From Promethearchaeum syntrophicum (lineage in GTDB: Archaea > Asgardarchaeota > Lokiarchaeia > Sigyniarchaeales > Promethearchaeaceae): a stretch of DNA of 32,000 bases. Positions 6,970 through 29,611 of this stretch are shown piece after piece. The notes under the pieces were generated by a model that had not been told where the DNA came from, made no database searches, and worked only from the letters and a program-made list of their open reading frames with translations. The stretch spans positions 1,170,001-1,202,000 of the forward strand of contig NZ_CP042905.2 of the NCBI RefSeq assembly GCF_008000775.2, read 5' to 3'. Position 1 is the first letter of the stretch. Each line of letters begins with the position of its first letter. Both the position numbers and the translations under genes were made by a program.

Positions 6970-7018
6970 TAAAAGAATCGGGAAGTATTTTTCGATTATT
7001 TTTTTCTTTATTTAAATT

Positions 7019-7907: not shown

Positions 7908-8441
7908 ATGACTCGGTATTTTGAATATGCTTGCCAACGATGTGGCAATGGAACTGCTCATCAATTATTCGTTTTACAATGTCAAAATTGTGGTAAATCT
8001 CTTTGTAAAAAATGTGCTAAAGGGTCTTTATGTTTAGATTGTTACAATGCTCTACCTGATGATTTGCAAAAGAATTATAATCGACAGCTAAAAACTCCAA
8101 TAATAATTATAAGTGTTATATTATTGGCAATTTTCATACCATTGGGCATTATTATTCCAGAATTATTAATATTCTGTGCAATTCTCGGTGGTGCGGCATG
8201 GTTAATGGATCATGGAAGATTGAAAACCACTCCCAGAAGTGCAGTAAGAAAAGCAAAGGTAATTGTAGCTGATGCCCGTCAACGATTTCAAAACATAGGT
8301 CCCACTCATCAGAATTACCAACAACAACAACAGCAGCAACAACAATACCAAAATCAGCAGCAACCGCAAAAAAATAATCAACAAAAAACTTATCAAAAAG
8401 ATCCTGATGACAAATACGGAGGAACTTTCTGGGATCAATGA
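7908..8441 (+). CDS. Cys-rich zinc-finger protein with a 2-TM hairpin and a Gln-rich C-terminal tail
   Basis: The N-terminus carries eight Cys in CxxC-type pairs (CQRCGN…CQNCGKSLCKKCAKGSLCLDC). Two hydrophobic segments follow. The tail reads QNYQQQQQQQQQYQNQQQPQKNNQQ. Confidence 0.6.
   Translation: MTRYFEYACQRCGNGTAHQLFVLQCQNCGKSLCKKCAKGSLCLDCYNALPDDLQKNYNRQLKTPIIIISVILLAIFIPLGIIIPELLIFCAILGGAAWLMDHGRLKTTPRSAVRKAKVIVADARQRFQNIGPTHQNYQQQQQQQQQYQNQQQPQKNNQQKTYQKDPDDKYGGTFWDQ
8319..8345 (+). repeat. Uninterrupted run of nine CAA/CAG codons (poly-Gln tract) inside a larger Gln/Asn-rich segment (about 8310-8399)
   Basis: Read directly: caa caa caa caa cag cag caa caa caa, in frame with the 7908 CDS. 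Confidence 0.9.
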
Positions 8442-8486
8442 TATTTCTCTTTTTTCCTTTTCGTTATTATATATTAAATTTATCAT

Positions 8487-10640
8487 CTAGATATATCTAA
8501 ATTCACCTGATAATTCAATATCTTTTGAAGATCTTCCAATTAACACTGCAAAATCTCCCTCCTCTACCTTCCAATCATGAATTTCAGCATCATAAAATGC
8601 CAAATGAGAGGGATTTATTGAAAATTGTACTGTTTTAGTTTCTCCAGGCTCTAACGATATTTTTTCAAATCCCTTCAATTCTTTTTCAGGTCGAATTAAT
8701 GAACATTCTAGATCTTTTAGATAAAGTTGAACAACTTCCATGCCTCCCCGCTTTCCAGAATTGGTGATGTCTACTAAAACTTCTAAGGATTCATCCTTAC
8801 TTAATTTATTAGAACTTAATCTCAAATTATTGTAGGTAAAAGATGTATAAGATAACCCAAAACCAAAAGGAAATTGTGGTTCGATTTTATTAGTATCAAA
8901 ATGCCTATATCCCACCATTATGCCCTCCAAATAGTTTATTGGGAAAGAATTCCAACGATATCTTTTCGCTGTTCTAGGGATTATATGTTTAAATGATAGC
9001 CTTGATGGATGTTTCACATAGTTTTTAATACTAGAGAAATCATTCCAATTTTTTGCCATGGTAAAAGGTAATTTTCCTGAAGGGTTAATTTTACCAAATA
9101 AAATTTCTGCAATAACATCTCCTGAATTTTGACCCAAATAAAAACTAAGTAAAACTGCTGGAACTTTATGAATCCAAGATTCTGTTTTAATTCCACCTCC
9201 AGCATTAAGTACCACTATAGTAGAAGGATTTAAATTGACAACTTTTTTAATTAATTGGTTTTGTTTGTATGGCATCTTCCAATCTCTATCCCAAGATTCC
9301 CCATCTTGCAATTTTGATAATCCAACAGCTAAAATCACATAATCTGCAGATTCTATTACTTTTGCATCTGTTGGTTTAATTTTATCTTTTTTGATTGGGA
9401 GGTAAATAAGTTCGGTCATATTGCCAATAGTAGATTGTACCGCTTTCAATATACTATGAGTTCCATAAGCAATAACATCACATGCTCCCCCTCCACTTGT
9501 AGGGGTTGGATTTGAATTTTTACCGAGAATTACAATTTTCTGTTTTTTATTATTATCAAGGGGTAAAATCGCATTATCATTTTTAAGCAAGACGGGGCAT
9601 TCTTGTGCAACTTCTTTAGCGATTATATCATGTTTTCTTCCATATTCTAAATATTTTCCACTAACAGGTTTCCCATATACACCTGCATTTAAAAATGTCC
9701 TCAATAAGTTAATTACCCGATCATTGATCATTCCTTGTGAAATTTTCCCTTTTTGAAGTAAATCTTCTATTTTTTTATGGGAATAATATTTTGTTTTAGG
9801 CATTTCTAAATCCAATCCAGCCATTAATGGACCTTCGGTACTATATAATGAATACCAATCAGATATTACAAAGCCAGTAAATCCCCATTTTCTTCTTAAT
9901 ACATCGGTCAAAAGATATTTGTTTTCACTACAATGAACTCCATTCAAAAGATTGTAAGAACACATTATCCCTTTTGAACCTCCACGTTGAATTGCCGCTT
10001 TGAATGCGGGAAAATATATTTCATGTAATGTTCTTTCATCAACAATTGAGTTACTACGATGTCGATTATAATCTGAATTATTACATACGAAATGTTTTAC
10101 AGTTGTTATAATGCCGTGGTTTTGAACGCCTTGAATATAAGGAACGACTAATTCACTTGCTAAAAATGGATCTTCTCCTAAATATTCGAAATTTCTTCCG
10201 TTTGTTGGGACTCTGTAAATATTAATGCCTGGAGCTAAAAGAATTGAAACGCCTTTAGCGCGACATTCTTTGCCGATAATATCTCCTACTTTTTGCATTA
10301 CATCACGATTCCAACTAGCAGCCATAGCAATTGGAGATGAAAAAGCAGTACATCGGCCAAAATTATGAACTCCTGCGGTTGCATCTGAACACCATAATCT
10401 TTGTAATCCTAAACGCGGGATTGCTGAAATTCCAAATTCATTTTCTCCCGAAATTAAATCAATTTTTTCATTCAACGTCATCTCTCCAAATAAATGAGAT
10501 ATCATACCATTAATGTCTAAATTTTGGTTTACTTTAGGAAGTAGTATCTTTTCGTTTTTAGGATGGCTTTTTTCAGCAAAATTTTTATCTCTTTTAGTTA
10601 TTACTTCTGTAATTATCTTTCTTAGAAATTTTCCATGCAT
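8487..10640 (-). CDS. Glycoside hydrolase family 3 beta-glucosidase (BglX-like), apparently cytosolic
   Basis: 717 aa. It has the GH3 motifs KHFVCNN and GFVISDW (nucleophile Asp). An alpha/beta sandwich domain follows, and then a C-terminal fibronectin-III-like domain (…VVQLYLKDLECS…). The N-terminus is not signal-peptide-like. Confidence 0.92.
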   Translation of the reverse strand: MHGKFLRKIITEVITKRDKNFAEKSHPKNEKILLPKVNQNLDINGMISHLFGEMTLNEKIDLISGENEFGISAIPRLGLQRLWCSDATAGVHNFGRCTAFSSPIAMAASWNRDVMQKVGDIIGKECRAKGVSILLAPGINIYRVPTNGRNFEYLGEDPFLASELVVPYIQGVQNHGIITTVKHFVCNNSDYNRHRSNSIVDERTLHEIYFPAFKAAIQRGGSKGIMCSYNLLNGVHCSENKYLLTDVLRRKWGFTGFVISDWYSLYSTEGPLMAGLDLEMPKTKYYSHKKIEDLLQKGKISQGMINDRVINLLRTFLNAGVYGKPVSGKYLEYGRKHDIIAKEVAQECPVLLKNDNAILPLDNNKKQKIVILGKNSNPTPTSGGGACDVIAYGTHSILKAVQSTIGNMTELIYLPIKKDKIKPTDAKVIESADYVILAVGLSKLQDGESWDRDWKMPYKQNQLIKKVVNLNPSTIVVLNAGGGIKTESWIHKVPAVLLSFYLGQNSGDVIAEILFGKINPSGKLPFTMAKNWNDFSSIKNYVKHPSRLSFKHIIPRTAKRYRWNSFPINYLEGIMVGYRHFDTNKIEPQFPFGFGLSYTSFTYNNLRLSSNKLSKDESLEVLVDITNSGKRGGMEVVQLYLKDLECSLIRPEKELKGFEKISLEPGETKTVQFSINPSHLAFYDAEIHDWKVEEGDFAVLIGRSSKDIELSGEFRYI

Positions 10641-10743
10641 GTTAAAGTAATTAGCCTTTGATTTTCTAAAATAACTTTTTAATTTTTAATTTTATATATG
10701 AGAAAGTTAATTTAAGAATGAAAAAAATAGTTTTAATATTAGT

Positions 10744-11145
10744 ATGAGTCAACTTGTTCGGAAAAGGTATTTTTGTCGGATATGCCAAAAATCGCACACG
10801 ATAAAATTTCCTCGTCATTTTGCTGAAAATCAGAAACGCTATCCATTTGTTTTTTTCTCAATTCATAAATATTCTGGGGATTCGGATGAATTTATTGAAA
10901 AAAATGGAGCAGACATTATAACCACGTTTTATGTTGATAAAAACTTAACAATTCGGGATGTGGATGTTGCTTGGGAAGACTCTAGTTCAAATATAATGTC
11001 GGAAAACGATACTGAGAATTTAGTCATGTTTTTAACTGAAACAATTAATGAAATGCAAGAACAATATGACTCCTTATTGGAGAAATATACAAAATTACTC
11101 GAATCTTCAGATAAAAAGGATAAAAACTATGAAGAAAAACTCTAA
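10744..11145 (+). CDS. Hypothetical protein with a C-terminal coiled-coil
   Basis: 133 aa with protein-like composition and a single CxxC near the N-terminus. I recognise no family. Its end overlaps the end of cbiO (convergent) by 4 nt. Confidence 0.5.
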   Translation: MSQLVRKRYFCRICQKSHTIKFPRHFAENQKRYPFVFFSIHKYSGDSDEFIEKNGADIITTFYVDKNLTIRDVDVAWEDSSSNIMSENDTENLVMFLTETINEMQEQYDSLLEKYTKLLESSDKKDKNYEEKL

Positions 11146-11987
11146 TTATCTTTTCTAGTGTTTTTAAGTAATTCAAGAAAATCATTAATATCTCTTGGAA
11201 AATTCATTTTTTCTTTCAAATGTAATTCCTCTTTTAATTTAAGATACAAGATAGATAAAATTGGAAGATCTAAATTTGCTTTTTGTAGAATTTCCATCTT
11301 ATTATATAAATCATTGATAAGTCCATCAAATAAAATCTCTCCTTGATGAATTACAATTGTTCTTTTAATGAATTTAGGAATTTTATCGAGATCATGGCTT
11401 ATTATTAACATAGATTTTTTTTTTTGATTTAAATTTTCAAAGATTTCTGAAAATTCTTTTTTTGTTCGAGGATCTAAATTTGCATAAGGCTCATCCAGCA
11501 AATAAATCTCGGGATCCATTGAAAATATTGAAGCAAATGCTATTTTTTTCTTCTCTCCATATGATAAATGAAAGGTCTTTTTATCAATTAGATTATGCAA
11601 TTTTAATGTATCTATAACATATTTAATCCTTGATTTCAATTCCTTTCCATTAATTCCTAAATTAGAAGGACCAAATTCAAGTTCTTGTAGGACCGTCGGC
11701 AGAAAAAGTTGATCATTAGGGTTCTGAAACATTATACCAACTCTTTTTCGAATATCTTTTTCATTTTTCCTATTTACTTCTTTCCCACTAATTTCTATTT
11801 TCCCCGTATAATTTGGTAATAAGTTAAGTAAATTAAGGAAGAAAGTTGATTTTCCTGAACCATTTTCACCTAAAATTATTAGAGATTCCCCTTTTTTCAA
11901 TTCTAGATTAATTCCCTTCAAAATTTCATGCTGGGGGAAAAAGGAGAAGTGTAAATCTTTAACCTTTATTTGAAGTTCATTTGACAT
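11142..11987 (-). CDS. cbiO: ECF transporter ATPase component (CbiO/EcfA-type ABC ATPase)
   Basis: Walker A GENGSGKST, a degenerate ABC signature LSYGEKKK, Walker B IYLLDEP and an H-loop SHD. It is the last gene of the cbiM cluster. Confidence 0.9.
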   Translation of the reverse strand: MSNELQIKVKDLHFSFFPQHEILKGINLELKKGESLIILGENGSGKSTFFLNLLNLLPNYTGKIEISGKEVNRKNEKDIRKRVGIMFQNPNDQLFLPTVLQELEFGPSNLGINGKELKSRIKYVIDTLKLHNLIDKKTFHLSYGEKKKIAFASIFSMDPEIYLLDEPYANLDPRTKKEFSEIFENLNQKKKSMLIISHDLDKIPKFIKRTIVIHQGEILFDGLINDLYNKMEILQKANLDLPILSILYLKLKEELHLKEKMNFPRDINDFLELLKNTRKDN

Positions 11988-11993
11988 TATATT

Positions 11994-12809
11994 TCACACA
12001 AAAAATATCCAAATTAACGTATTTAGTAGAATCATACATAGTAGGTAAATTAATGTATTCAACAATTTCGGTCTGTAATTGATATCAGGGAGATCTCCGT
12101 TATAACAGCGAGCTAGCATTGCTTGATGAATTTTTGTTCCATGATTAAATGATCTAAGTAATAGCATTGAAAAAATTGTGCCAAGATGAGTGAACCTTTT
12201 TTTAAAAGCATATTTTTCAAACCGACGGCAATCATCAGCACGCAAAATTTTAATAAGATTTTCAAAAAATAAGAAAAAATATCTATATGTCAACGTAATA
12301 ATTGTGATTAATACAGATGGAAATCTTATTTGGTGAAGAATATGGATGATATGGGTAAAGGGAGTTGATAGAGTAAAGAATGTTATAATTGCTATATTTG
12401 CCAGTATTCTTAATAAGAAATTTCGTGCTAAATTAAATCCTAGTTGAGTAACTGTAAAATTAATAGAAAAAATATTAAAAGACCATATTGTTAAACCTTC
12501 ACTGGAAAAAAGCAGAGGAATCGTAACAATTAATGGAAAAAGAATACCTAATACGACTAAAAACTTGATATAACGCTTTATATTAATCTTCAATAGGGTA
12601 GCTGAAAGAATCAAGACAATGCTAATAACAATGTAACTTATATATGCATTTTCTGTTTTTATTGCATAATTTACAACAACAATCATCCATAAAGTTGAAA
12701 TTAATTTAATAAGTGGAAAAATATAAAATAGACGAGTTTTCTGAGTAGATTCATATTCTGTATTTAAATAATCCTGAAAATTTTCATTAACACGAACCAA
12801 AAAACTCAT
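11994..12809 (-). CDS. cbiQ: ECF transporter transmembrane T component (CbiQ/EcfT)
   Basis: Polytopic protein with the characteristic C-terminal ARxxR-type region (…HQAMLARCYNG…). The track start at 12824 is a TTG that overlaps the upstream gene. The ATG at 12809 lies 4 nt after the upstream stop and is preferred. Confidence 0.85.
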   Translation of the reverse strand: MSFLVRVNENFQDYLNTEYESTQKTRLFYIFPLIKLISTLWMIVVVNYAIKTENAYISYIVISIVLILSATLLKINIKRYIKFLVVLGILFPLIVTIPLLFSSEGLTIWSFNIFSINFTVTQLGFNLARNFLLRILANIAIITFFTLSTPFTHIIHILHQIRFPSVLITIITLTYRYFFLFFENLIKILRADDCRRFEKYAFKKRFTHLGTIFSMLLLRSFNHGTKIHQAMLARCYNGDLPDINYRPKLLNTLIYLLCMILLNTLIWIFFV

Positions 12810-12813
12810 AAAT

Positions 12814-13158
12814 TTATCCTTCAATAACTATTTGAGTGTTTTTTTCTTTATTTTTTCCTTTGATTAGAGTTAGTTTTAGTAATCCAAAAATAATTCCAAA
12901 AGTAATGATAGATCCAATAAGCCCAATGAGCCAAGAATGAATATAAGTATTATTTATGTTTAAAAATTCATAATCGGGAAAGAGGGCTCCTTCAAATGAA
13001 AAATCTGATTCAGGTTCATATTCATCATTACCTGTTAAATCAAATTGAACTTGTTCAAGTCCGTCAGGTCCGGCAATCATAGGCATCCATAAAAATGCTG
13101 CCAATATAATTAAAGTAAATGTAAATGTAAATAATAAAACTTTATTTTCACGTTTCAT
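12814..13158 (-). CDS. PDGLE-domain small membrane protein (CbiN/NikN-position component of the metal ECF transporter)
   Basis: 114 aa with an N-terminal TM, the literal motif GPDGLEQV, an acidic loop and a C-terminal TM. It sits between cbiM and cbiQ, where cbiN normally lies. Confidence 0.75.
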   Translation of the reverse strand: MKRENKVLLFTFTFTLIILAAFLWMPMIAGPDGLEQVQFDLTGNDEYEPESDFSFEGALFPDYEFLNINNTYIHSWLIGLIGSIITFGIIFGLLKLTLIKGKNKEKNTQIVIEG

Positions 13159-13167
13159 ATCAATTCA

Positions 13168-13860
13168 TTAACTCCATAGTGGTAATTTTTCTATTGGGGG
13201 GATATATTCAGGGGCATATTTTGCAAAAAAGCCAACAATAACCATAGTAATCAAACCTTCCCCTATTCCAATCAAAGCGTGATAACCAAGCATCGCAGGA
13301 ATTGTTAGTCCTATTCCATAAGGAAATTTTTCAGAGATTCCAATTTCAATTCCGCAGCATAAAGATGCAATAATAATTGAAATGTATGCTCCTACAAAAG
13401 CACTAATTAAAAGCCATTTTGTCTCCGCCGATTTTTCTCCACTTTGATTATCTGAATTTGTTTTGACGGTCTTCTTTCTAATTATCCAATAAGTGAAATA
13501 TCCAGGCATTGTGGCAATTCCCATATTGAAAATGTTTGCGCCGAGTGCTAACAACCCTCCATCTCCAAACATTAATGATTGTATTAGTAAAATCACTGAA
13601 ATCATGATAAACGCTGTCGATGGTGAGAAGAATATTGCCATTAGTACAAATCCCAACAGATGTCCGCTTGTTCCGGCTAAAACTGGAAAGTTTAACATTT
13701 GCAATGTAAAAACCATAGCGGTTATTACACTTATGATAGGAATTTGCTCTGGTTTTACAGATCCTCTCATTTTTAATAATGAGAATATCCCATATCCAAA
13801 AACAATAATCCAAAGGGGTATCAAAATGGATAAATCTAGTAATCCTTCTCCGATATGCAT
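13168..13860 (-). CDS. cbiM: CbiM/NikM-family substrate-capture (S) component of a Co/Ni ECF transporter
   Basis: 230 aa. The N-terminus MHIGEG matches the metal-coordinating Met1-His2 start of the CbiM/NikM family. It has about 6-7 TM segments. It is the first gene of a tightly packed four-gene operon with gaps of 4-9 nt. Confidence 0.9.
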   Translation of the reverse strand: MHIGEGLLDLSILIPLWIIVFGYGIFSLLKMRGSVKPEQIPIISVITAMVFTLQMLNFPVLAGTSGHLLGFVLMAIFFSPSTAFIMISVILLIQSLMFGDGGLLALGANIFNMGIATMPGYFTYWIIRKKTVKTNSDNQSGEKSAETKWLLISAFVGAYISIIIASLCCGIEIGISEKFPYGIGLTIPAMLGYHALIGIGEGLITMVIVGFFAKYAPEYIPPIEKLPLWS

Positions 13861-14201
13861 GAAGTTACACCAATTTTTAATATCAAATATTAATAATACT
13901 AATTTTTAATGAAAATTAAATAATACTATTTCATAAAATGATCATACTATAGAGTCTGGATAAATATGATTTTTGATTTTTCGAGTGAGGAAAATATTAT
14001 TGGAAATTTTCTAAAATAGTTGTTTTTTAATTAAAAATTACTCTATTTTAATACAAGTAAAAGTTTCAACTCCATTAATTATTCAAATTTCATTATTATT
14101 GACAAAAAAATGTGAGAAAAAAGTTATAATATATAGCAGAAATAAATAATACAATAAGTTTTCTCTATAATTTTGTCGACAATAGATTAAATTTAAATAG
14201 T

Positions 14202-14768
14202 TTGGGTCGAAAAATAGATTTAAGTTTAGATTTTAAGGAAAATTTTTTTGAGTTGGTGGCATTGGGTTTGGAAACAAATTTTGGAGAATCAGATTCATTC
14301 GGAGGTTATTATCATATACCTAAATATCTAGAGGACTTAATCGATGATTCTGTTAAACAAGATTTCTTAGAAGTATTACCTTTAAACCCCGAAGACCGAA
14401 AGCATGAAATGTATAAAGCGATGAAATTTTCTTTTGAGGCAAGTCATATAGATATACTTTATGAACGAAAAGTCATAAGTAAAGACGAAAATTCCCTAGT
14501 AATACCACATGAACAATTTCTTTTTGGATTTAGACCTAGTGAAGGATTATGTATTTTCACACAAAAAAAACAACATAAGGAGATGTTGTGTGATGGACCT
14601 ATTCGTGAACTTGCAAAACACTGTGTATTGACGCAAAGCTTGCAATATGCTTTAGTTCCTCTAAACGAATTTAGAGTTTGGAGCTACATTCCTGTTTGTT
14701 GTAGCGAGGATACATGCCCTTTAAAAACTCGTCCTTTCAACTTGAGACGAGATTTATTTGAAGATTAA
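14202..14768 (+). CDS. Hypothetical acidic protein with a Cys cluster near the C-terminus
   Basis: 188 aa. The start is TTG, and the first in-frame ATG is only at codon 70, although the upstream part looks like real protein. The C-terminal region contains VCCSEDTCP. No family recognised. Confidence 0.45.
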   Translation: MGRKIDLSLDFKENFFELVALGLETNFGESDSFGGYYHIPKYLEDLIDDSVKQDFLEVLPLNPEDRKHEMYKAMKFSFEASHIDILYERKVISKDENSLVIPHEQFLFGFRPSEGLCIFTQKKQHKEMLCDGPIRELAKHCVLTQSLQYALVPLNEFRVWSYIPVCCSEDTCPLKTRPFNLRRDLFED

Positions 14769-14824
14769 TGATACCAAATTTATGTTTTCAAAGTAAAATT
14801 TTTGTTAAAATTAATTATCTCTTT

Positions 14825-15541
14825 TCATAAATGCAATTTTAATCCGTTGTACAGTTCTATTGCCAAACGTTCTGTAATCTGATTTAGAATCAAATCATCT
14901 GGATGAACTTTAGTTTCAAGAATTTTCTTTTCTAGATGCCCCGCTTCGTAGGATAGTCTTTCTTTTTCATCAAAAGTTAGAGATTGTGGGTCTTTAATAT
15001 ATTGTTGGACAAGCTTAATCGGAGATTTTTGGTAGTATCGAAAAAGATCACCATAATTTTCAGAAAAGAATAGAGATTGACCTTTAGATAACAAGTTATC
15101 AGTAGGGATGTGAGCAATTTTTAATAATTCTAAGGGAATATTGGATAGACTTACAATTGGATTATCGGTTAAATCGAGATGTTGCAGATTTACAAGATTT
15201 CTGAAACTTTCCGGTAAAGAAGTTAATTTATTTCCCCATAGTTGGAGTTTTCGAACTTTTACAAGATTTCCGAAACTTTCCGGTAAATTTAATAATTGGT
15301 TCCAACCTAAATCGAGTTCTTGAAGATAAACAAGATTCCCAATATTTTCTGGTAAAGATATTAAATTTTTAATACCTGTAATTCTTAATTTGATAATTTG
15401 ACCATTTTTAACGTAATATCTTGGCCGTGGGGATATTTCTACCCATTTTCTTAATTCCCACTTTTTTTTTCTGTATATTTTTAATTCTGGGTATTTTTTT
15501 TTGAACGCTTTGAATACTGCTTTTTCTGAGTCTGAAATCAT
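14825..15541 (-). CDS. Leucine-rich repeat (LRR) protein, eukaryote-like 23-residue repeats
   Basis: Four consecutive LxxLxLxxNxLxxLPxxhxNL repeats (LPENIGNLVYLQELDLGWNQL / LNLPESFGNLVKVRKLQLWGNKL / TSLPESFRNLVNLQHLDLTDNPI). A helical C-terminal region follows. GTGA lies 8 nt upstream of the ATG. Confidence 0.85.
   Translation of the reverse strand: MISDSEKAVFKAFKKKYPELKIYRKKKWELRKWVEISPRPRYYVKNGQIIKLRITGIKNLISLPENIGNLVYLQELDLGWNQLLNLPESFGNLVKVRKLQLWGNKLTSLPESFRNLVNLQHLDLTDNPIVSLSNIPLELLKIAHIPTDNLLSKGQSLFFSENYGDLFRYYQKSPIKLVQQYIKDPQSLTFDEKERLSYEAGHLEKKILETKVHPDDLILNQITERLAIELYNGLKLHL
15120..15370. repeat. 69-bp (23-codon) tandem periodicity at DNA level underlying the LRR units
   Basis: acaagatttc[t/c]gaaactttccggtaaa occurs at 15192 and again at 15261. 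A diverged copy (caagattcccaatattttctggtaaa) is at 15331. The spacing is exactly 69 nt. Confidence 0.85.
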
Positions 15542-15561
15542 TAAAAGTCACAATAATAATA

Positions 15562-17313
15562 TTATTTTCTTGTCTTATCCCATTCTTTTTCCAATATTTT
15601 ATACGATAATTTTTGTGAAATAAAATTCCAAGGGTGTTGCCCAAATGAATTTCCTTTCATATCTTCAAAGAACTTAATAATATATTCATTCTCTCCAAGA
15701 TGTTCCCGTCGAGTTATTCGATACCATTTTTTAATCTCTCGACCAGTTTGATAATATTTTAAAATTAATTCACTCATTTCTGTTCCCCCCAAAGATAATA
15801 GTGTTTGGATGTAAGCTTCCTCAACGGGTAAGGTTTCAAATTTTATTTGCTTATCGCCCTTTAACGGATCATATATTTTTTTAAGTTTTTCTTTTAAAAT
15901 AATTAGATTTGCATCAGAAAAATTATCAATGTATGATTCAAATGGAGTATGTGCTTTAGGAATAAAGGGATTTATGCTTAGTCGAACTCCTTGTTTTCCA
16001 AAACCTAGCGCTGCAATTTCTTTAACTAATTTAGGAATCGCATCAATATCTTCTTTCGTTTCAAATGGCAGCCCATATAATATATAGAGTTTGACATTAG
16101 GAATGCCTGCTTCCAGTAATAATTGTGCTCCTTTCAAAATTTCTTCATTACTAATTTTCTTATTAATTTTTAAACGGAGTCGATCTGTTCCCGTTTCTGG
16201 TGCAAAAGCTACCGTTCTCATTCCACTTTTTGCTATTAATGAAGCTAATTCTTCAGATAATGTTTCGATTCGGATAGAAGGGATTGAAAATTCTACTTTC
16301 TGATCAATTAAGAATTTACATAATTCTCTAAATTTCGGATGATCTGTTACCGATGAACCAATTAAGACTACCTTGTTTACGCTAGAATTTTTAATTCCAG
16401 AAATTATAATTTCCTTCAAATTTTCAAGACTACGATTTCTAAAAGGTTTTAATTGACTTCCAGTCATACAAAATCGACAAAAATGGGGACATCCACGATT
16501 TATTTCTGCGTAGAAAGATTCTCCAAAAGGCAATGGATATTTTTCATGGGGTTTAACTTTAGGTATTATTTGTCTAATTGGATGTGGAAATTCATCTAAA
16601 TTTTTAACATAAACACGTTCGATATCACCATAATCTGTAAAGTTATAAATTTGAGGGATCCAAAAACCCGGTGTATTTTGGAGTGTCTTTAAAAAATTTC
16701 TTTTAATTTGGGCATAAGTATGTAAAGAATTTGAATTAATCGAATTAAACCATGAATTTATCATTACATCATTAACTGGTTCAATTTCTCCAATAAAAGC
16801 GGCATCTATAAATGGTTCTAATGGTAACGGATTTGAACGAATAACAGGCCCGCCTGCTAATATTATTGGAAAAATTTCTTCTTCTTCATTAATTATTTCA
16901 TTTTCTCCATGAATCTTTTTTGACATCCTATCATTTCTAAGAAATGGAATATGGCTATTATCTAATATCCATACCAAATTCGGAAAATCAAGTTCATAAT
17001 TAATCGAAAACGCAATAATATCAAATTTTTTTAATGGCATTTGGTTTTCCATACTTCGGATCGCTGGGTAAAACCGGGCAGGATTAGTATTAGAAACAAA
17101 ATTTGGAGGTAAATTCTTAGATTTAAAGGTTTTAATCTCTTTATTAGAGGGCATGAAGAAACGTTCACAAATTACGTTGGGGAATTTATTCCATAGGGCG
17201 TAAAGTGTTTGAATTGTTAAACCAGCCATTGAAGAATATATATTAGGGTAAACTAAAGCTATCCTTAAATGATCTTCACGCCATGGTTTTTTAATCATAT
17301 TCAATTCATGCAT
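15562..17313 (-). CDS. Radical SAM enzyme with an N-terminal B12-binding-like domain (COG1032-type, function unknown)
   Basis: 583 aa. It has the CxxxCxxC cluster motif NRGCPHFCRFCMTG. Its N-terminal pattern (IALVYPNIYSSMAGLTIQTLYALW) is typical of the uncharacterised B12-binding/radical-SAM fusion family. Confidence 0.9.
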   Translation of the reverse strand: MHELNMIKKPWREDHLRIALVYPNIYSSMAGLTIQTLYALWNKFPNVICERFFMPSNKEIKTFKSKNLPPNFVSNTNPARFYPAIRSMENQMPLKKFDIIAFSINYELDFPNLVWILDNSHIPFLRNDRMSKKIHGENEIINEEEEIFPIILAGGPVIRSNPLPLEPFIDAAFIGEIEPVNDVMINSWFNSINSNSLHTYAQIKRNFLKTLQNTPGFWIPQIYNFTDYGDIERVYVKNLDEFPHPIRQIIPKVKPHEKYPLPFGESFYAEINRGCPHFCRFCMTGSQLKPFRNRSLENLKEIIISGIKNSSVNKVVLIGSSVTDHPKFRELCKFLIDQKVEFSIPSIRIETLSEELASLIAKSGMRTVAFAPETGTDRLRLKINKKISNEEILKGAQLLLEAGIPNVKLYILYGLPFETKEDIDAIPKLVKEIAALGFGKQGVRLSINPFIPKAHTPFESYIDNFSDANLIILKEKLKKIYDPLKGDKQIKFETLPVEEAYIQTLLSLGGTEMSELILKYYQTGREIKKWYRITRREHLGENEYIIKFFEDMKGNSFGQHPWNFISQKLSYKILEKEWDKTRK

Positions 17314-19002: not shown

Positions 19003-20070
19003 TTAACTATCTTCGATTGTTTTTATACCATTAATTAACAACAAGTTATCTACTTGATTTTCCATCCAATCAATTAATTCATTTATTCCTGCACGTTTTG
19101 GAAGACTCGAAAATATAATTTGCCAGTCACGATCATGAATATCGTTCAATTTAAATTTCTCACTTATTACTTTTAGATTTTTATCGCAACCAGGCAAATC
19201 GGTTTTATTTACTAAAAACAACAAAGGAATTCCTTTTAATTCATATAGATTTAACATATTCCAAAGCTCTTCTTTTGCTTCCAAAAATCTTTCTGAATCT
19301 GCACAATCCAAAACATATAATAATAAATTGCTAGCTTGTGCACCTCGTAACCAATCAGATCGAAATATTTTTTGTCCAGGCATATCCCAGCATACAAGTT
19401 TCACCCCAGAATCCAGTTTAACATTTGTGATTCTGAATTTTTTTGTGGGGGGAAAATAATCAAAATTAAATTTACCCGTGGATAATAAGCGCATAAGAGA
19501 AGATTTTCCAGCAAAATCAATGCCATAAACGAAAACTTTAACTAATGGGTTGCTGTTGGAATCAATCATCACTTTATTGATTTCTTTTTGAAAAACTAAG
19601 GATTCATCATCATATTTTCTTATATCGATAAATAATGTTAGTAATAAATTTGATTTATTTTTAATTTTATCAGTTTTATTAACTTTCTCGAAAGTTTCTA
19701 GGTATGAAACCATCAGATACTCTTGAAACAATCGAATCAGTTCATTACGGTAATCATATGGATTAGCATCTTTTTTAAAAACTAAACCTAAGATATATTG
19801 ATAAGGTAATGGAATGACTAATAAATTAACACCATTAACTTGAATCGCTTTTGAATTTGCATGTAAAAAATCATCTGTGAAGTGCTCAGGTTGATAGTTT
19901 TTTTCTAAAATAGTTTTTTGACTTATAATTATTTGCCGAACTATTTCATTAGAATCAAATAGTATATCTTCATCAGGATATGCAAGATACGCATTATTAA
20001 AATTGTCTGAATTTATTTCATTGCTATTATTTTCAGGGATCAAATTCATTAAGAAGATATTTTCAAGCAT
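19003..20070 (-). CDS. Arf/Arl-like small GTPase (C-terminal, about 19006-19542) fused to a ~175 aa N-terminal longin/roadblock-like domain
   Basis: G1 GIDFAGKSS. Switch I PPTKKF. G3 WDMPGQ, followed by an Arf-like interswitch/switch II (RSDWLRGAQASNLLLYVLDCADSERFLEAKEEL). G4 NKTDL. The N-terminal region has no nucleotide-binding motifs. Confidence 0.9.
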   Translation of the reverse strand: MLENIFLMNLIPENNSNEINSDNFNNAYLAYPDEDILFDSNEIVRQIIISQKTILEKNYQPEHFTDDFLHANSKAIQVNGVNLLVIPLPYQYILGLVFKKDANPYDYRNELIRLFQEYLMVSYLETFEKVNKTDKIKNKSNLLLTLFIDIRKYDDESLVFQKEINKVMIDSNSNPLVKVFVYGIDFAGKSSLMRLLSTGKFNFDYFPPTKKFRITNVKLDSGVKLVCWDMPGQKIFRSDWLRGAQASNLLLYVLDCADSERFLEAKEELWNMLNLYELKGIPLLFLVNKTDLPGCDKNLKVISEKFKLNDIHDRDWQIIFSSLPKRAGINELIDWMENQVDNLLLINGIKTIEDS

Positions 20071-24130: not shown

Positions 24131-24688
24131 TTATTTAGTGTTAAAACTGAATTCTTCAGGCCCCATGAACATAATTAACAAGGCTGGAAGAACTATTAAT
24201 ACAACTCCAGCACTGTATGTACATATCGCTACTATGATTCCATAGGCTAACATTTTTGGTATTTGAATGCTGCCAATAACAAAAACATCATTTACCAAGA
24301 AACTCCAGTCTTTTTCTTTCGATTTCTCGGCATATATTTTTCCATATGTCCAAACTAAATACGCCATGGCAACAACACTTAGCAAGTTCCATACTCCTGC
24401 AAAAATTCCCCCACCAATAAAGCTGATAATTGCACCTATTATTAAGAAAATTGATATTATTGCTAGAATTATCCATGAGAATTTTCCCAAAAATGAGACA
24501 AACTCTTCTAATGATTTCCACGTACTATCATCTCTAGTTCTTGGAGTTGCTTTTTTTTTAGCAATTTTGCTTGCTTCTTCGACAGTTGTTGGAGTTTCTT
24601 CCGGTATATCGTGGCCACACTTAGGACATACCTTCGCTCCTTCTAATCTTTGCCCACATTCGGGGCAAAACTTCTCAAAATACGACAT
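24131..24688 (-). CDS. N-terminal zinc-ribbon protein anchored by about 4 TM segments
   Basis: The N-terminus reads MSYFEKFCPECGQRLEGAKVCPKCGH, two CxxC knuckles. A charged linker and four hydrophobic segments follow. AGTGA lies 7 nt upstream of the ATG. Confidence 0.65.
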   Translation of the reverse strand: MSYFEKFCPECGQRLEGAKVCPKCGHDIPEETPTTVEEASKIAKKKATPRTRDDSTWKSLEEFVSFLGKFSWIILAIISIFLIIGAIISFIGGGIFAGVWNLLSVVAMAYLVWTYGKIYAEKSKEKDWSFLVNDVFVIGSIQIPKMLAYGIIVAICTYSAGVVLIVLPALLIMFMGPEEFSFNTK

Positions 24689-24810: not shown

Positions 24811-27090
24811 TTATAGGAATTCTTTAAAATGGGTTTCCACAAGTTTTCCGTCATCGGTAAAAAACCCCATGTTTCCAGTCCAATTTTCGAGAATATCTCC
24901 GTGTTTTTTTTCAAAATCTTCAATCGTACTTTTTAATGCCAATCGGATAGTAGAATTTTCCCGATCCGCAAATACGGCAGTAAAAAATGGAAATTTTTCA
25001 GAGTATTCTAAGATAACCTTTTTATCACCTGAATCAATGCCTCTTAGAAGGTCACTGCTTCTAGTTGTTTCTTGGATAAAGCCGGTTAAAGCACTAAACA
25101 TTCCGCTTACTAATGCGGGATCTACAGGTGAGCCTTTATCCCCTCTGAAATTGTAGTAAAATAGATCTCTTCCATCAATATAGAGTATATAAAGACCATC
25201 TATTCTCGCTTTTTCATGAGTAAATGAGAATTCAGGGACCCACCAAGATAAAATTTTCCTTTCAGTTAGATCTTTGAGTAAATCATGTAGATTCTGAGTT
25301 TCATATAAAGAATTGTAGAGTTCAGTTAATTCTTGACCAGTTAATCCATTGCTATTTTCCAATTTTAATATTAGATTTTTCAATTTAGGATCTTTTATTT
25401 CCGCTGTATCTATATTTTTGATGGTAATTAGATATTCGGGGTTTTTTTGGAAATCTTTGAAAGTAACCAATTCCTGTATGCTTGAATAGGTTATTTTCTC
25501 TACAAATTTATTTTCTTTAACAATTGTTTTTGTCATAAACTTCTTATTGATAAAAGCTATTAGATATCCATACAAAATAAATGAAACATATGGGCGTAAT
25601 ACTAAAAATGGATAAGCTAATATAGACAATACAATATTATTTGAAAAATTAGAGTTCATAAATCCTGTTCGCATGGTTATAAAATCGAAATTCATCTCCA
25701 TGCTAATTGGCGCGCTCGTAATCCACACAGCATCTGGACCTATATATGTGGGACTTAATGTTGAATAGAATTCAGGAATAAGTAAATAAAACAATATAGA
25801 TATTATAAACAAAAAGATACAGAAAAAGAATATTGATATTCCGCTGAAAGCATTTAATTGAATTGATTTTGCAAAGAAATATGCTATTACGAGCATTACG
25901 AGAATAACATGCAAAGAATCGATGAAAATTAGCAATTCTGTGATAGAAATAATGCCCAACGTAGGTGTTTCTGCAACTAAAGATAGTGTTAAGAAATCAA
26001 CTCCACCCTCAATAGTTGCAGTTATACTTAGTTTTAAAAACATTACTCCAAATTTAATAAAAATTACAATTGCAGCGGCAACGATGCTATAGGCAATTAC
26101 TATACTATTATTTGATATCTGTGATTTAACATTTTCTTTGGATTTCTTTTCCTGAGCTATTTTCCGCTCTAAGCGATTTTTTCTCCAATATATTAATTTC
26201 AAGAATATTAATATACTGATCGGCTCAAAAATTCGTAATAATATTATAAAAATAAATGCCCCCATGAAGAAATAAGCAAAAAAGTACAAAATAAGTACAA
26301 TACTATCAATTTTTTGTGCAATGAATAGAAGAATCGAAAGAATTGCAATAGGAGTACCTATTTGTGTCAAGCTTGTAAAAAATTTTGATTGAATTTGTTC
26401 CCCGATAAATCTCCCTTTAAACGATATCTTGCTTGATTTTATAAGCTGGTAGCAAAATAGAAATGTTACAATATATACAAAGAGAATTTCCAAAAACCAT
26501 CCTAATGCATCTGAAGATTCTGCCACATTCGTAGGTTCAACGTTAGCTATATCAAGAATTACAACTAAAATATATAAGGAGATTGGTAATAAAATTAAGA
26601 ATGCCATAAGCAATTCTTTTTCTTTTTTCCAATCCTTAGCCGTTAAGGATTTGATTATCATCTCTCGAGGACTTTCAGAGAATTCAAAATTAATTTTTGA
26701 ATATTTCTCATCCATTGTACCTGGTTCAGATTTTAATCGGAAATATAAAACCAACATCGATATAAATGGGGAGATGATGAATATTAGAGGTAAAATTACA
26801 AAAGGATATTGAAGATATAAGAGTAACATGGAAAAAGAGCGTTCAAATAAGAAAATTATTAAATAACCAATATTATTTTTTTCATTTTCTCCTAACGGGA
26901 TTTCTTTCACATCTTGGAAAATCGCAGGAAGAACCCAATAAATCAAGAAAAATATACATAGACCGAAATAAAACCTTCTGTAGATTAATCCGATTTTCTT
27001 TTTCCTTAAAAATATTAAGGGTATTGCAAAAATCAACACTGGAAACAAATTTATTACAATGCTTAATATAAAATCAATTGTTTCAGCCAT
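24811..27090 (-). CDS. Large polytopic membrane protein (about 14-15 TM) with a 241 aa soluble C-terminal tail; its last ~131 aa (about 24814-25206) look longin/roadblock-like
   Basis: 759 aa. Hydrophobic segments were counted by eye. The tail begins after …YGYLIAFINKKF. It contains a helical, possibly winged-helix-like, stretch (LTGQELTELYNSLYETQNLHDLLKDLTERKIL). It ends with a beta-beta-alpha-beta-beta-beta-alpha pattern (GLYILYIDGRDLFYYNF / PALVSGMFSALTGFIQETT / LRGIDSGDKKVILEYSEKFPFFTAVFADRENSTIRLALKSTIEDFEKKH). Confidence 0.8.
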   Translation of the reverse strand: MAETIDFILSIVINLFPVLIFAIPLIFLRKKKIGLIYRRFYFGLCIFFLIYWVLPAIFQDVKEIPLGENEKNNIGYLIIFLFERSFSMLLLYLQYPFVILPLIFIISPFISMLVLYFRLKSEPGTMDEKYSKINFEFSESPREMIIKSLTAKDWKKEKELLMAFLILLPISLYILVVILDIANVEPTNVAESSDALGWFLEILFVYIVTFLFCYQLIKSSKISFKGRFIGEQIQSKFFTSLTQIGTPIAILSILLFIAQKIDSIVLILYFFAYFFMGAFIFIILLRIFEPISILIFLKLIYWRKNRLERKIAQEKKSKENVKSQISNNSIVIAYSIVAAAIVIFIKFGVMFLKLSITATIEGGVDFLTLSLVAETPTLGIISITELLIFIDSLHVILVMLVIAYFFAKSIQLNAFSGISIFFFCIFLFIISILFYLLIPEFYSTLSPTYIGPDAVWITSAPISMEMNFDFITMRTGFMNSNFSNNIVLSILAYPFLVLRPYVSFILYGYLIAFINKKFMTKTIVKENKFVEKITYSSIQELVTFKDFQKNPEYLITIKNIDTAEIKDPKLKNLILKLENSNGLTGQELTELYNSLYETQNLHDLLKDLTERKILSWWVPEFSFTHEKARIDGLYILYIDGRDLFYYNFRGDKGSPVDPALVSGMFSALTGFIQETTRSSDLLRGIDSGDKKVILEYSEKFPFFTAVFADRENSTIRLALKSTIEDFEKKHGDILENWTGNMGFFTDDGKLVETHFKEFL

Positions 27091-27559: not shown

Positions 27560-29611
27560 ATGGCTAGGAAAAGAAAAAAGAAAGTAGAACCTCCAAAAGA
27601 GACCAAAATGGGTTTCGCAGCTGATGAACCTGTAGAGAAGCAACAAGCTGAAGAGATGAAAACTTATTCTGGTGGATCTGAGGAAATCCAATATAAGAAC
27701 CGTAGCGGAAATATTATTGAAACTTTTGATTCTGCATCAGGGAAGAAAGAAGGGGAAATTTCTTTAGGCTCACAAGGTGCTAAAGGAAAATTTGTAATGC
27801 TTGAAGTATTAGAAAAAACCGAAAATCATTATGAATATAATGGAGAAACCGACATTGAAGGTGACAGAAAAACTTCAGGTATATTCAAGATTAAAAATCC
27901 ATCAGATTCTGATAAAATTTGGGACATTGATGTCACTTTTAAAAAAGATAAACCTGTAGGGTTGGATGATGAAATTCATCTCAAAAATTTAGACCCAAAT
28001 GAGGAAAAGGAATATGAATATGAAATTGAGCAATTTGAAGAACCTGCTCTAAAAATATCTGAATTCGTTAGCACAATTAATGATGAAGATACCCTCAGTT
28101 ATTCCCTTGCAACGGGAGATGAAAATAAAGTATTATTTAAATTAGTTTTAAAGAACCTTATGGATTATCCTATTAAGAATATTGTGGTTAAGAAGGAAAT
28201 TCAAGAGGGTTATACTGATTTCAACCTACTTGGAGCTTCATTGGGATCTACAGATAATACTTCAGAATTTATTGAATGGAAGATTAATACGTTATCAGCT
28301 AATGCAGAAGCTGAATTAAAACTCAATATGAGTATCCAAATTGAAGATTCAAGCTCAAAAGTACGAACAGGGAAAATTACAGCAGAATATTCAACTCCAG
28401 ATAAAGCTTTAACCGGACTTGAAATAGATAAGTTTGATGCCTATTCAAATAACTTTGTGGGTGTTTTAGAAGAACAAAAAGATGATAAACCAGATGCGTA
28501 TGATTGTTCTGTGATGTTTATTAACGAAAGTGAATTTCAAGTAAAATTGGTTAATCTCGATGTAAAAAACGCTGTAACTGATAAAAAAGTTTTAGACATT
28601 GATCCAAATGAAATTCCAATTGTCGCTTCGGGTGCTACTTGGACATCATTACCATGGGAAACCGAAACTGATGATGGTTTAGAACCCCGCTTCCTTAAAA
28701 CAGTCGAATTCTTTTTAATTGCTTCACGAAAAGTCTCTACTCTAGGAACTATTGCAATTGATGATTTTGAATTGGCAGTGGCTGCTATTGCAGGAAAATT
28801 GGATTATTCCTTAGTACAATTAATGTCTTATAGAGTTACTCCATTTGATGCATTATTACAAGTCAAAAATACTGGTGGTGCCGATTTAAACGAAATTATT
28901 TTTGAAGAAACAATTCAAGAAGGATATGTGCCTCCAAATCCCGAAGATGTTGAAGTATACATAGTAAAAGATTATGAATCAGATATTGAAGAAGGAGATG
29001 CAGATTGGGAAAACTTGGGTGATCCTATTGAAATCGATACTGATTTAATTGAAATCAGTCCAAATAATCGAGAACCTGATACGGAACATGTTATTAGGAT
29101 TAAACTCACAGATCTAAAAGATCATGCAATGGGGATGTTCCTTCCAAATATGGTCATTCGGCTTAAATATCCTATTGAAGCATATAAACCTGCAAAAGAT
29201 TCAGAATATGTCTCAAATGTAAGATATATTGCCAACACTTATCCCGCAGGAGCTCCAATAGAATTTATTCCCGCTGCTAAAGCCAGAATTCCAGTTCTAC
29301 ATCTGAGAAGAAAAGTCCTTAAAGGGAAGAAGATTCACGCAATGGCGACAGAAGGTGAATATCAAATTGTTTTGACCATTAAGAACACAGGAGACACTTT
29401 TATTGAGAATGTCGAAATGAGAGATGTAGTACCAGACAATTTTGAGTATGGATCATATAGTTTTGAACCAGCATCAACTGATAACCTTGAAGGAAAAGAT
29501 TTATTAATCTGGAAGATTGATCGGATCGAAGCAAACGACGAATTTGAGATCACATATACAATCACCGGTAAGGGCGAATACAAAGCTAGTGATTCTCAAT
29601 TATCTGCTTGA
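27560..29611 (+). CDS. Acidic 683 aa protein of about five tandem beta-sandwich (DUF11/CARDB-like) modules, with a basic N-terminus and no signal peptide
   Basis: The recurring module pattern is h-x-h-x-h-x-N-x-(G/S)-…-I-x-N/D-h-x-h-x-D/E-x-h-P/Q-x-G-(F/Y)…, with a trailing amphipathic strand. Examples are IFKIKNPSDSDKIWDIDV, LFKLVLKNLMDYPIKNIVVKKEIQEGY, LLQVKNTGGADLNEIIFEETIQEGY and YQIVLTIKNTGDTFIENVEMRDVVPDNFEY…FEITYTITGKG. The preferred start is the ATG at 27560 (MARKRKKK). The upstream 37 codons of the track ORF are T-rich and intergenic-like. Confidence 0.75.
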   Translation: MARKRKKKVEPPKETKMGFAADEPVEKQQAEEMKTYSGGSEEIQYKNRSGNIIETFDSASGKKEGEISLGSQGAKGKFVMLEVLEKTENHYEYNGETDIEGDRKTSGIFKIKNPSDSDKIWDIDVTFKKDKPVGLDDEIHLKNLDPNEEKEYEYEIEQFEEPALKISEFVSTINDEDTLSYSLATGDENKVLFKLVLKNLMDYPIKNIVVKKEIQEGYTDFNLLGASLGSTDNTSEFIEWKINTLSANAEAELKLNMSIQIEDSSSKVRTGKITAEYSTPDKALTGLEIDKFDAYSNNFVGVLEEQKDDKPDAYDCSVMFINESEFQVKLVNLDVKNAVTDKKVLDIDPNEIPIVASGATWTSLPWETETDDGLEPRFLKTVEFFLIASRKVSTLGTIAIDDFELAVAAIAGKLDYSLVQLMSYRVTPFDALLQVKNTGGADLNEIIFEETIQEGYVPPNPEDVEVYIVKDYESDIEEGDADWENLGDPIEIDTDLIEISPNNREPDTEHVIRIKLTDLKDHAMGMFLPNMVIRLKYPIEAYKPAKDSEYVSNVRYIANTYPAGAPIEFIPAAKARIPVLHLRRKVLKGKKIHAMATEGEYQIVLTIKNTGDTFIENVEMRDVVPDNFEYGSYSFEPASTDNLEGKDLLIWKIDRIEANDEFEITYTITGKGEYKASDSQLSA

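Follow-up and report, generated by a model that had tools for sequence, protein, structure and literature searches.

What a large archaeal membrane protein might do when every part of it is unfamiliar to the domain databases, and whether the soluble domain at its C-terminus ties it to small GTPases, are the questions raised by a locus of Promethearchaeum syntrophicum MK-D1. The window analyzed here is a stretch of 32,000 nucleotides (NZ_CP042905.2, positions 1,170,001-1,202,000; coordinates below are those within this window) with a G+C content of ~30%, and the gene in question, DSAG12_01663, lies on its minus strand. A previous sequence-only reading had placed an open reading frame (ORF) of 759 aa at 24811-27090, and this ORF indeed held all three peptides quoted for it; its product was 100% identical to DSAG12_01663 / QEE15836.1, whose database name is 'hypothetical protein'. 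Scans against Pfam and NCBIfam recognized no part of the protein, and a literature search by name found no paper that mentions it. In brief, we found that the tail of this protein has a predicted longin fold and belongs by sequence to a large family of domains that mostly stand next to a membrane segment.

DSAG12_01663 and its family

We identified 147 homologues of DSAG12_01663 (E<=1e-3), nearly all of ~740 aa and every one named 'hypothetical'. A scan with one genome per species detected relatives in 135 genomes, all of which were labelled Promethearchaeota or carried similar names of Asgard metagenome-assembled genomes. Because of these homologues and relatives, DSAG12_01663 is a real gene. 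A full-length AlphaFold2 (AF2) model was obtained from a 40-sequence alignment, with a predicted local distance difference test score (pLDDT) of 83.6 and a predicted template-modelling score (pTM) of 0.83. The protein was divided into a hydrophobic N-terminal part of ~515 residues and a soluble tail of ~245 residues. The best-conserved parts of the family were the longin domain and transmembrane (TM) helices 5-8, and the tail was nearly invariant across the 135 species. The features of the gene are as follows.

24811..27090, minus strand: whole gene DSAG12_01663 (QEE15836.1 / WP_147662734.1), polytopic membrane protein with a predicted cytoplasmic longin tail, 759 aa
25549..27090, minus strand: membrane domain, residues 1-514, with 12 long hydrophobic helices (AF2) and a fold private to the family
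25654..25728, minus strand: putative extracytoplasmic beta-hairpin, residues 455-479, in the K/R-poor loop before the last TM helix (AF2, DSSP), with invariant W456 and R474
25396..25548, minus strand: juxtamembrane linker, residues 515-565, beginning K/R-rich and continuing with a beta-hairpin (518-538), one short helix and one short strand (AF2)
25213..25395, minus strand: three-helix winged-helix-like module, residues 566-626, with helices 568-579, 585-592 and 598-610 and a long strand 614-626 (AF2, DSSP)
24814..25212, minus strand: C-terminal sybindin/Bet5-type longin domain, residues 627-759 (predicted from Foldseek, the domain profile and a PDB profile search)

A predicted longin fold in the C-terminal tail

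The tail was modelled separately by AF2 from a 26-sequence alignment (pLDDT 85.2). The last ~131 residues, which the sequence-only reading had taken for a terminal longin/roadblock-like domain, form a discrete domain, and all of the 50 best Foldseek matches of the tail in PDB were longin/roadblock proteins (E from 1.7e-4, probability 1.00; target-normalised template-modelling score, TMt, 0.43-0.69). Most of these 50 proteins are subunits of GTPase-binding platforms. They included the TRAPP subunits Trs23/TRAPPC4 and Bet5/TRAPPC1 (2j3t_D/C, 3cue_C, 7b6d), Mon1-Ccz1 (5ldd), zeta-COP (3tjz_C), the sigma subunits and mu N-terminal domains of AP complexes, the LAMTOR/p14-MP1 roadblocks (6b9x_B, 1veu, 6ehr) and a Streptomyces Roadblock/LC7 protein (3kye_A). 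With the full-length model, Foldseek returned the same list for the tail, plus Sec22b (TMt 0.73) and Ykt6.

In the AF2 model, DSSP assigned strands to residues 630-637, 642-647, 684-686, 691-696 and 702-708 and helices to residues 658-675, 713-735, 741-744 and 748-754. The resulting order, beta-beta-alpha-beta-beta-beta-alpha-alpha, is that of a longin. Since the domain starts with a strand and its extra helices are C-terminal, its predicted topology is of the longin rather than the roadblock type. A roadblock/LC7 identity (PF03259) was considered and rejected on the same order of elements, on the start of the domain only ~7 aa behind a TM helix in most carriers, and on the lack of a PF03259 match in DSAG12_01663. 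Helix alpha1 (SGMFSALTGFIQETTRS) was nearly invariant across the family, with the consensus SGMFSAITSFIKETTKS; in the structures of known longin dimers, such as TRAPP and Mon1-Ccz1, alpha1 is the platform helix.

Sequence comparison was less decisive than fold comparison. A hidden Markov model (HMM) of the longin domain matched residues 628-758 of DSAG12_01663 with E=2.7e-42, and a domain profile built from 30 diverse copies was searched against 177,635 PDB sequences. Its top three matches were TRAPPC1 (E=0.03, in register from TRAPPC1 residue 2), Trs23 (E=0.11) and the dynein roadblock (E=0.23), all of them weak; profiles of the whole tail and of full-length carriers of the domain matched no PDB sequence. 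DSAG12_01663 itself matched neither the curated longin families nor Robl_LC7 in Pfam, even at E<=10, and other carriers gave sub-threshold values for Sybindin (0.006), Fuz_longin_1 (0.01) and Robl_LC7 (0.008). The agreement with TRAPP/sybindin thus appeared weak at the sequence level and pointed in the same direction as the fold. Taken together, the models confirmed a predicted longin fold for the tail, for which we use the name sybindin/Bet5-type longin.

The sequence-only reading had also noticed a helical, possibly winged-helix segment between the membrane part and the terminal domain. The AF2 model agreed with this, with three helices and a beta-hairpin at approximately residues 566-626; strand 614-626 runs into the longin sheet. 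This segment matched no helix-turn-helix (HTH) family in Pfam, even at E<=10, and could not be aligned with the HTH_34 domain of P0298, a soluble relative.

Membrane domain and topology

Of the 14-15 TM helices proposed by the sequence-only reading, the polytopic character stood and the number did not, as AF2 gave 12 long hydrophobic helices. In the helix pair 74-120, one helix is probably not fully membrane-crossing. The most conserved part of the membrane domain was TM5-8, in which E157, G197, E201 and Y206 are among the invariant residues. From loop 4 to the tail, K/R-rich and K/R-poor loops alternated consistently in an average over 40 homologues. Because these loop charges obey the positive-inside rule, the tail is predicted to be cytoplasmic, and an N-out/C-in topology fits the charges of the loops. 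For the same kind of reason, the hairpin at residues 455-479 is placed outside, since its loop is K/R-poor.

The earlier remark that the protein has no transporter signature was upheld for every approach used. The membrane domain corresponded to no Pfam or NCBIfam family, Foldseek with the full-length model found no PDB match covering it, and no internal (inverted) repeat was found. Neither profile, structural nor repeat signatures of known transporter superfamilies (MFS, APC/LeuT, ABC, DMT and others) were detected in it.

A widespread juxtamembrane longin family

With the family profile, HMMER was run exhaustively over 1.84 billion representative proteins; 3,701 of them matched at E<=1e-3, and of these 853 reached E<=1e-10. 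Profile positions 1-~500 (the membrane domain) matched family members only, whereas the proteins matched by positions 615-742 (the longin domain) ranged in length from 160 to 2,171 aa. By sequence, the tail longin is therefore placed in a large family that has no Pfam model. We surveyed 77 carriers outside the DSAG12_01663 family among the best 150 matches and scanned the 68 best non-family carriers with Pfam; no model covered the longin domain in any of these 68 proteins.

A TM segment preceded the longin domain in 65 of the 77 non-family carriers (84%), with a median gap of 7 residues between the last TM segment and the domain (interquartile range 5-10). DSAG12_01663 is unusual among the carriers in having a linker of ~110 residues between membrane and longin. 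Several architectures recurred: ~360-aa proteins with 6-7 TM helices, ~530-aa major facilitator superfamily (MFS) transporters (MFS_1), and proteins of ~780 aa or 1,000-1,400 aa with a large N-terminal region, one TM helix and the longin domain. Some of the large N-terminal regions hold Ig-like Big_7, CARDB or MG2 domains, and a KaiC-like ATPase sometimes lies C-terminal to the longin (4 of the 68 scanned carriers). A minority of carriers are soluble, several of which have HTH domains, such as P0298 (named 'transcriptional regulator'; HTH_34, 1.4e-14) and P0260 (HTH_20).

Labelled carriers came from Helarchaeota, Lokiarchaeota, Hodarchaeota and Atabeyarchaeia and, outside Asgard archaea, from Thermoplasmatota and Methanomassiliicoccales, a taxonomic range that is based on few labelled proteins. 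A word-indexed search with the domain alignment gave 29 matches. One Thermoplasmatota carrier matched the tail of DSAG12_01663 in plain BLASTP with E=6e-14.

The surroundings of individual carriers were also inspected. In a 1,326-aa carrier of Atabeyarchaeia (L084:8001-12771, CP147779.1), Ig-like ectodomains are followed by one TM helix, then by the longin domain and finally by a KaiC-like ATPase at the C-terminus; a stand-alone 265-aa KaiC-like gene on the opposite strand overlaps the end of this carrier. Within the 4 kb that follow a receptor-like carrier of Helarchaeota (L085:3362-9548; 757 aa, with a large N-terminal region, one TM helix and the longin) lie genes for a Vps4-like AAA ATPase, for two small GTPases (Arf/Ras/RagA-like) and for a protein of 254 aa that matches Fuz_longin_1 faintly. 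Apart from this GTPase/longin/Vps4-like cluster, nothing systematic was seen in the neighbourhoods of the four carriers inspected. In the window itself, when the 94 ORFs were searched with the longin HMM, the 133-aa hypothetical protein DSAG12_01648 (10744-11145, plus strand) gave a weak partial match (E=0.003, model positions 75-114), which may be noise; it has no convincing Pfam match.

Relationship with small GTPases

The window contains one small GTPase gene that had been proposed as the partner of the tail.

19003..20070, minus strand: Arf-like small GTPase QEE15831.1 / WP_147662730.1, with Pfam Arf at residues 174-339 (1.1e-31) and a Pfam-unmatched N-terminus of ~175 aa

According to the sequence-only reading, the tail repeats a pattern present in the N-terminal domain of this GTPase. 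No such similarity was recovered: BLASTP of the tail against the N-domain gave E=39, the longin HMM scored the GTPase ORF at E=2.1 (0.6 bits), and hhalign gave a probability of 0.7%, with only a generic strand and helix aligned. On the other hand, in an AF2 survey of all 74 MK-D1 small GTPases, 26 of which are fused to roadblock or longin domains, this protein is labelled 'WP_147662730.1-LG' (supplement, PMC10933270). We read 'LG' as longin-GTPase from the description of longin-fused GTPases in that paper, and the label is the sole support for a shared fold. A fold class common to the tail and the N-domain is thus credible, whereas homology of the 'repeated pattern' is not demonstrable. A word-indexed search with the N-domain found only 4 homologues, all with at least 77% identity, and judged by sequence this domain is diverging fast, whereas the tail is nearly invariant.

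Linkage between the two genes was analyzed in 83 loci with family members (~82 distinct), comprising 1.1 Mb of flanks. In MK-D1 the genes are 4.7 kb apart, and because five genes on both strands lie between them, they are not in one operon. Given 74 small GTPases in 4.32 Mb, the chance of finding one within 4.7 kb of any MK-D1 gene is ~15%. The longin-Arf orthologue was close to the family gene in L003 only (4.6 kb apart) and did not occur in the flanking DNA of the ~80 remaining loci. Among the relatives whose flanks are long enough, L003 is the closest (47% identity), and it keeps general synteny, including PEPCK (phosphoenolpyruvate carboxykinase), GrpE and the mu-homology neighbour described below. 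For GTPases of any kind, a jackhmmer G-domain search was used, as a single-sequence phmmer search was under-sensitive and missed the GTPase of L001; three 88-aa antisense ORFs inside the family gene were discarded from the jackhmmer output as drift. Small GTPases were found in 9 distinct loci of the 83, at distances of 3.4-9 kb and with no fixed side or strand. This corresponds to a density of ~1/115 kb in the flanks vs 1/58 kb genome-wide in MK-D1, that is, no enrichment.

These data bear directly on the proposal that the tail recruits the Arf-like GTPase to the membrane by forming a heterodimer with the N-terminal longin of that GTPase. Longin-class domains on both proteins (by Foldseek for the tail and by the 'LG' label for the GTPase), the similar spacing of the two genes in MK-D1 and L003, and fusions elsewhere that join the tail's own longin family to a GTPase all speak for such a pair. 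However, the two domains share no sequence or profile similarity, no operon links the genes, the orthologue is missing near most family members, the N-domain evolves quickly in contrast to a near-invariant tail, and such proximity would arise by chance in ~15% of cases. This specific pairing was therefore not sustained; we consider it unlikely, and the partner of DSAG12_01663 is probably not this GTPase in particular.

The more general idea, that a membrane copy and a GTPase-fused copy of one domain coexist, fared better. A scan of the flanks of the 83 loci with the longin HMM revealed eight more carriers, among which were two longin-GTPase fusions.

L011:4636-5553, minus strand: longin-GTPase fusion, N-terminal longin (HMM E=1e-13) followed by an Arf/Roc/Ras domain (Pfam ~1e-15)
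L013:821-1705, minus strand: longin-GTPase fusion, N-terminal longin (HMM E=1e-10) followed by an Arf/Roc/Ras domain (Pfam ~1e-15)

Both fusion proteins (~295-306 aa) align over positions 2-126 of the 129 of the model, lack the C-terminal W-x-G motif of the family and are encoded ~4 kb upstream of the family gene. On this sequence evidence, one family is seen to supply both membrane-tethered and GTPase-fused longin copies. Because fusions with a G domain exist, the longin domain appears to be functionally tied to small GTPases by 'Rosetta-stone' logic. The fusions also leave room for the earlier idea that a membrane copy pairs with a GTPase copy, but not in the case of the Arf-like GTPase of this window.

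Proposed function of the tail

We propose that the tail may dimerise at the inner face of the membrane, in the manner of the TRAPP, Mon1-Ccz1, Ragulator, SR-alpha and MglB platforms, and that the dimer may dock or regulate a small GTPase. The G domain could be bound on the alpha1 surface of the dimer, or the tail could pair with the longin of a longin-GTPase fusion; in either case the tail would couple GTPase signalling to the state of the membrane domain. The observations in favor of this proposal are the near-invariant alpha1, the fold matches to GTPase platforms, the weak sequence matches to TRAPP and roadblock proteins, the predicted cytoplasmic location of the tail, the juxtamembrane family, the L011 and L013 fusions, and the 74 small GTPases of MK-D1, 26 of them with a roadblock or longin fusion.

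Several points weigh against it. First, longins have roles without GTPases, in SNARE regulation and as the core of adaptor sigma and mu subunits. Second, a G domain was missing from all of the 68 best non-family carriers that were scanned, and the soluble relatives with HTH domains would fit a sensor or regulatory-domain reading equally well. Third, no conserved adjacency to a small-GTPase gene, of the type known from MglA-MglB, conservons or the Asgard LAMTOR1-like/Rab-like/DENN operon, was found across the 83 loci; the invariant neighbours are instead a histone deacetylase (HDAC)-family gene, a small ORF, and genes for an FtsX-like permease and an ATP-binding cassette (ABC) ATPase. Finally, the membrane domain, with no family match, no solved-fold match and no internal repeat, gives no functional lead. 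On balance, GTPase docking by a dimeric tail is a tentative proposal whose chances we place slightly short of even.

Gene neighbourhood of the family

The main clade of the family comprises 74 proteins with pairwise identities of 34-97%, and the block upstream of its genes was essentially invariant. Occurrence in eligible loci was as follows.

Divergent HDAC-family gene (PF00850), ~100 bp upstream: 67/67
133-aa ORF: 65/65
FtsX-like permease: 59/60
ABC ATPase: 55/55
TM protein with a double zinc ribbon: 45/48
PF04199 cyclase-family gene, downstream: 47/69

As the last value illustrates, the downstream side decays faster than the upstream side. The block is ordered as a 340-aa multi-TM protein, the double-zinc-ribbon TM protein, the ABC ATPase, the FtsX-like permease, the 133-aa ORF, the divergent HDAC gene and the family gene, and it surrounds the family gene in most Promethearchaeota, at L001/L083 7000-12232 and ~70 other loci (for example L024 and L027). 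The adjacency of the HDAC gene was kept in the divergent locus L006. MK-D1 and the loci nearest to it (L002-L005 and L067) have lost the HDAC/FtsX/ABC block.

Such a neighbourhood could mean that the family members are transporter- or enzyme-like proteins acting together with the HDAC, FtsX-like and ABC proteins, with the longin tail serving them for regulation or dimerisation and no GTPase being involved; handling of an acetylated metabolite or an envelope component would be an example of such a role. The near-complete co-occurrence despite wide sequence divergence within the clade, its persistence at L006 in the case of HDAC, and the fusion of the longin to MFS transporters elsewhere speak for this explanation. 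Nevertheless, the lack of the block in MK-D1 and its relatives indicates that the linkage is not obligatory, strong synteny in a single archaeal class may reflect kinship instead of function, and the membrane domain offers no transporter signature, repeat or PDB fold match. This explanation would also leave the longin-G domain fusions unexplained. Both it and the example role attached to it appear rather unlikely.

At the MK-D1 locus itself, the divergent neighbour is a different gene.

27560..29611 (ORF from 27449), plus strand: DSAG12_01664, 683 aa from the NCBI start, with Pfam Adap_comp_sub and DUF11

The Adap_comp_sub match covers residues 218-332 (9.6e-9; 35.4 bits vs a gathering score of 31.6), and DUF11 was matched at 2.2e-12. 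The N-terminus of DSAG12_01664 is highly basic and has no signal peptide. Homologues adjoin the family gene in L003, L004 and L067, and in L006 one lies behind the HDAC gene, 1.8 kb away; this linkage is confined to the MK-D1-proximal clade. Eukaryotic mu-adaptins combine a longin and a mu-homology domain (MHD) in one chain, and a membrane-tethered longin together with DSAG12_01664 as its MHD-like counterpart could form a split adaptor-like pair. An Adap_comp_sub match above the gathering score, the linkage just described and the presence of AP mu-N and sigma longins among the Foldseek matches of the tail are compatible with this idea. It is weakened by the absence of DSAG12_01664 from the flanks of ~75 main-clade loci and by the nature of the MHD match, which comprises 115 residues of a beta-sandwich protein with DUF11 and may be generic Ig-like similarity; moreover, DSAG12_01664 matched no PDB sequence. 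A literature search pairing 'Asgard' with 'mu homology domain' found no paper. Among the explanations considered here, we rate the split adaptor as the least probable.

In one locus, L002:13213-16878, the family gene (P0018) lies 1-4 kb from genes for Vps4, ESCRT-II (PF05871) and EAP30. A linkage to ESCRT genes, which this locus suggested, was seen in no other of the 83 loci and was discarded.

The L002 neighbourhood is also relevant to the idea that the protein is a membrane-tethered one-component regulator, in which the winged-helix-like module would bind DNA or a winged-helix partner of the ESCRT-II type and the longin would serve as a sensor or partner-binding domain. A three-helix module with a wing stands directly before the longin, and soluble relatives (P0298 and P0260) pair this longin with a genuine HTH. 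Yet the segment resembles no HTH family and does not align with the HTH of P0298, most carriers lack the module altogether and have the longin directly at the membrane, and the ESCRT genes occur at that single locus. We regard this regulator as quite improbable, only marginally ahead of the split adaptor.

Downstream of DSAG12_01663 on the same strand is a further small gene.

24131..24688, minus strand: QEE15835.1, 185 aa, with an N-terminal zinc ribbon (Pfam Zn_ribbon) and TM segments

It is 122 bp from DSAG12_01663 and may be co-transcribed with it; no homologue was detected in the flanks of other family loci at E<1e-4. Between the Arf-like GTPase gene and DSAG12_01663 lie genes for GrpE, PEPCK and a permease. 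Ordinary housekeeping genes occupy the remainder of the window (1591-17313):

EamA transporter
4122-6350: FeoB
alpha/beta hydrolase
8487-10640: GH3 glycosidase
11142-13860: CbiM/CbiQ/ABC cobalt energy-coupling factor (ECF) transporter
14825-15541: small leucine-rich repeat (LRR) protein
15562-17313: 583-aa ORF, radical-SAM enzyme-like by sequence appearance

Apart from PEPCK and GrpE, which were tested in L003, none of these housekeeping genes was found next to a family gene elsewhere.

Comparison with known systems

The closest counterparts of the tail are the longins of guanine nucleotide exchange factors (GEFs), namely TRAPP Bet5/TRAPPC1 and Trs23/TRAPPC4 and Mon1-Ccz1/Fuzzy, which gave the best structural and the best (sub-threshold) sequence matches and have the same order of secondary structures. 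The likeness consists of a predicted fold and weak sequence matches. In addition, the eukaryotic TRAPP and Mon1-Ccz1 longins are soluble subunits of multi-protein GEFs that reach the membrane via other subunits or lipids, whereas in DSAG12_01663 the longin is in the same chain as a 12-helix membrane domain.

Two other eukaryotic systems are similar in concept. At lysosomes, Ragulator-Rag with SLC38A9 or PQLC2 couples a polytopic protein to a roadblock/longin GTPase platform. However, the transporter, the lipid-anchored LAMTOR1 and the roadblock dimers are separate proteins there, and their fold is that of a roadblock, with an N-terminal helix, not a longin. In the signal recognition particle (SRP) receptor, the longin-class domain of SR-alpha (SRX) binds the small Arf-like GTPase SR-beta at the membrane, but the TM anchor is on SR-beta and not on the longin. 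SRX was absent from the top 50 Foldseek matches of the tail, and the Pfam SRPRB matches concern G domains only.

Among prokaryotes, the Streptomyces conservons (CvnA-D), in which a membrane sensor kinase is part of a roadblock/small-GTPase complex (PMC4316618; PMC13343842), and Myxococcus MglA/MglB provide examples of a roadblock protein regulating a small Ras-like GTPase, and Streptomyces 3kye is itself a fold match of the tail. These roadblock proteins are separate and operon-encoded, in contrast with a longin that is fused to a membrane protein and has no GTPase operon. Many fusions of longins to signalling domains have been described in Asgard archaea (Liu et al., bioRxiv 10.1101/2020.10.19.343400). 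The Asgard longin- and roadblock-GTPase fusions and the two-component fusions with an 'NPRL2-like longin' come from the same organisms and have the same fold class as the tail. Since all of the 68 scanned carriers lacked HisKA, HATPase and receiver domains, the tail longin may differ from the 'NPRL2-like' family.

Implications for Asgard archaea

Previous work had established that Asgard archaea are rich in longin and roadblock domains and fuse them to GTPases (PMC10933270; Liu et al.), and in Streptomyces complexes of membrane sensor, roadblock and GTPase were known as separate proteins. In the literature searched, we found no description of a longin that forms a juxtamembrane module of polytopic or single-pass membrane proteins, although the supplementary asCOG tables, which lay outside the search, may annotate it; neither PMC10933270 nor Liu et al. 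uses the term 'transmembrane' in its main text. The statement of the sequence-only reading that no prokaryotic system with this architecture has been described was consistent with this result.

Asgard genomes encode dozens of small GTPases and many longin/roadblock proteins, and so raise the questions of which regulator acts on which GTPase and how the GTPases are recruited to membranes. The authors of the MK-D1 survey noted that matching GTPases with regulators is difficult, as the genes are not in operons, and that GFP-tagged MK-D1 proteins showed no membrane targeting in HeLa cells (PMC10933270). A membrane-fused longin module in common with longin-GTPase fusions would provide a concrete set of candidate membrane docking sites. 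It also shows a eukaryote-type longin of the TRAPP/Mon1 class in use as a receptor-proximal domain in archaea. Extended to the whole family, our proposal would be that juxtamembrane sybindin-type longins are a common cytoplasmic output module of receptors and transporters in Asgard archaea and some Thermoplasmatota, which docks or regulates small GTPases, possibly by pairing with the longins of longin-GTPases. This broader claim is possible but doubtful.

If it is true, there would be an Asgard layer of receptor-to-GTPase signalling on membrane-tethered longin platforms. Ragulator/SLC38A9, SR-alpha/beta and the membrane GEF platforms of the TRAPP type would then have a prokaryotic forerunner in this layer, which would also explain how Asgard GTPases without a lipid anchor find membranes. 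Even if the link to GTPases fails, several thousand archaeal membrane proteins now called 'hypothetical' would gain a new and useful domain definition from our results.

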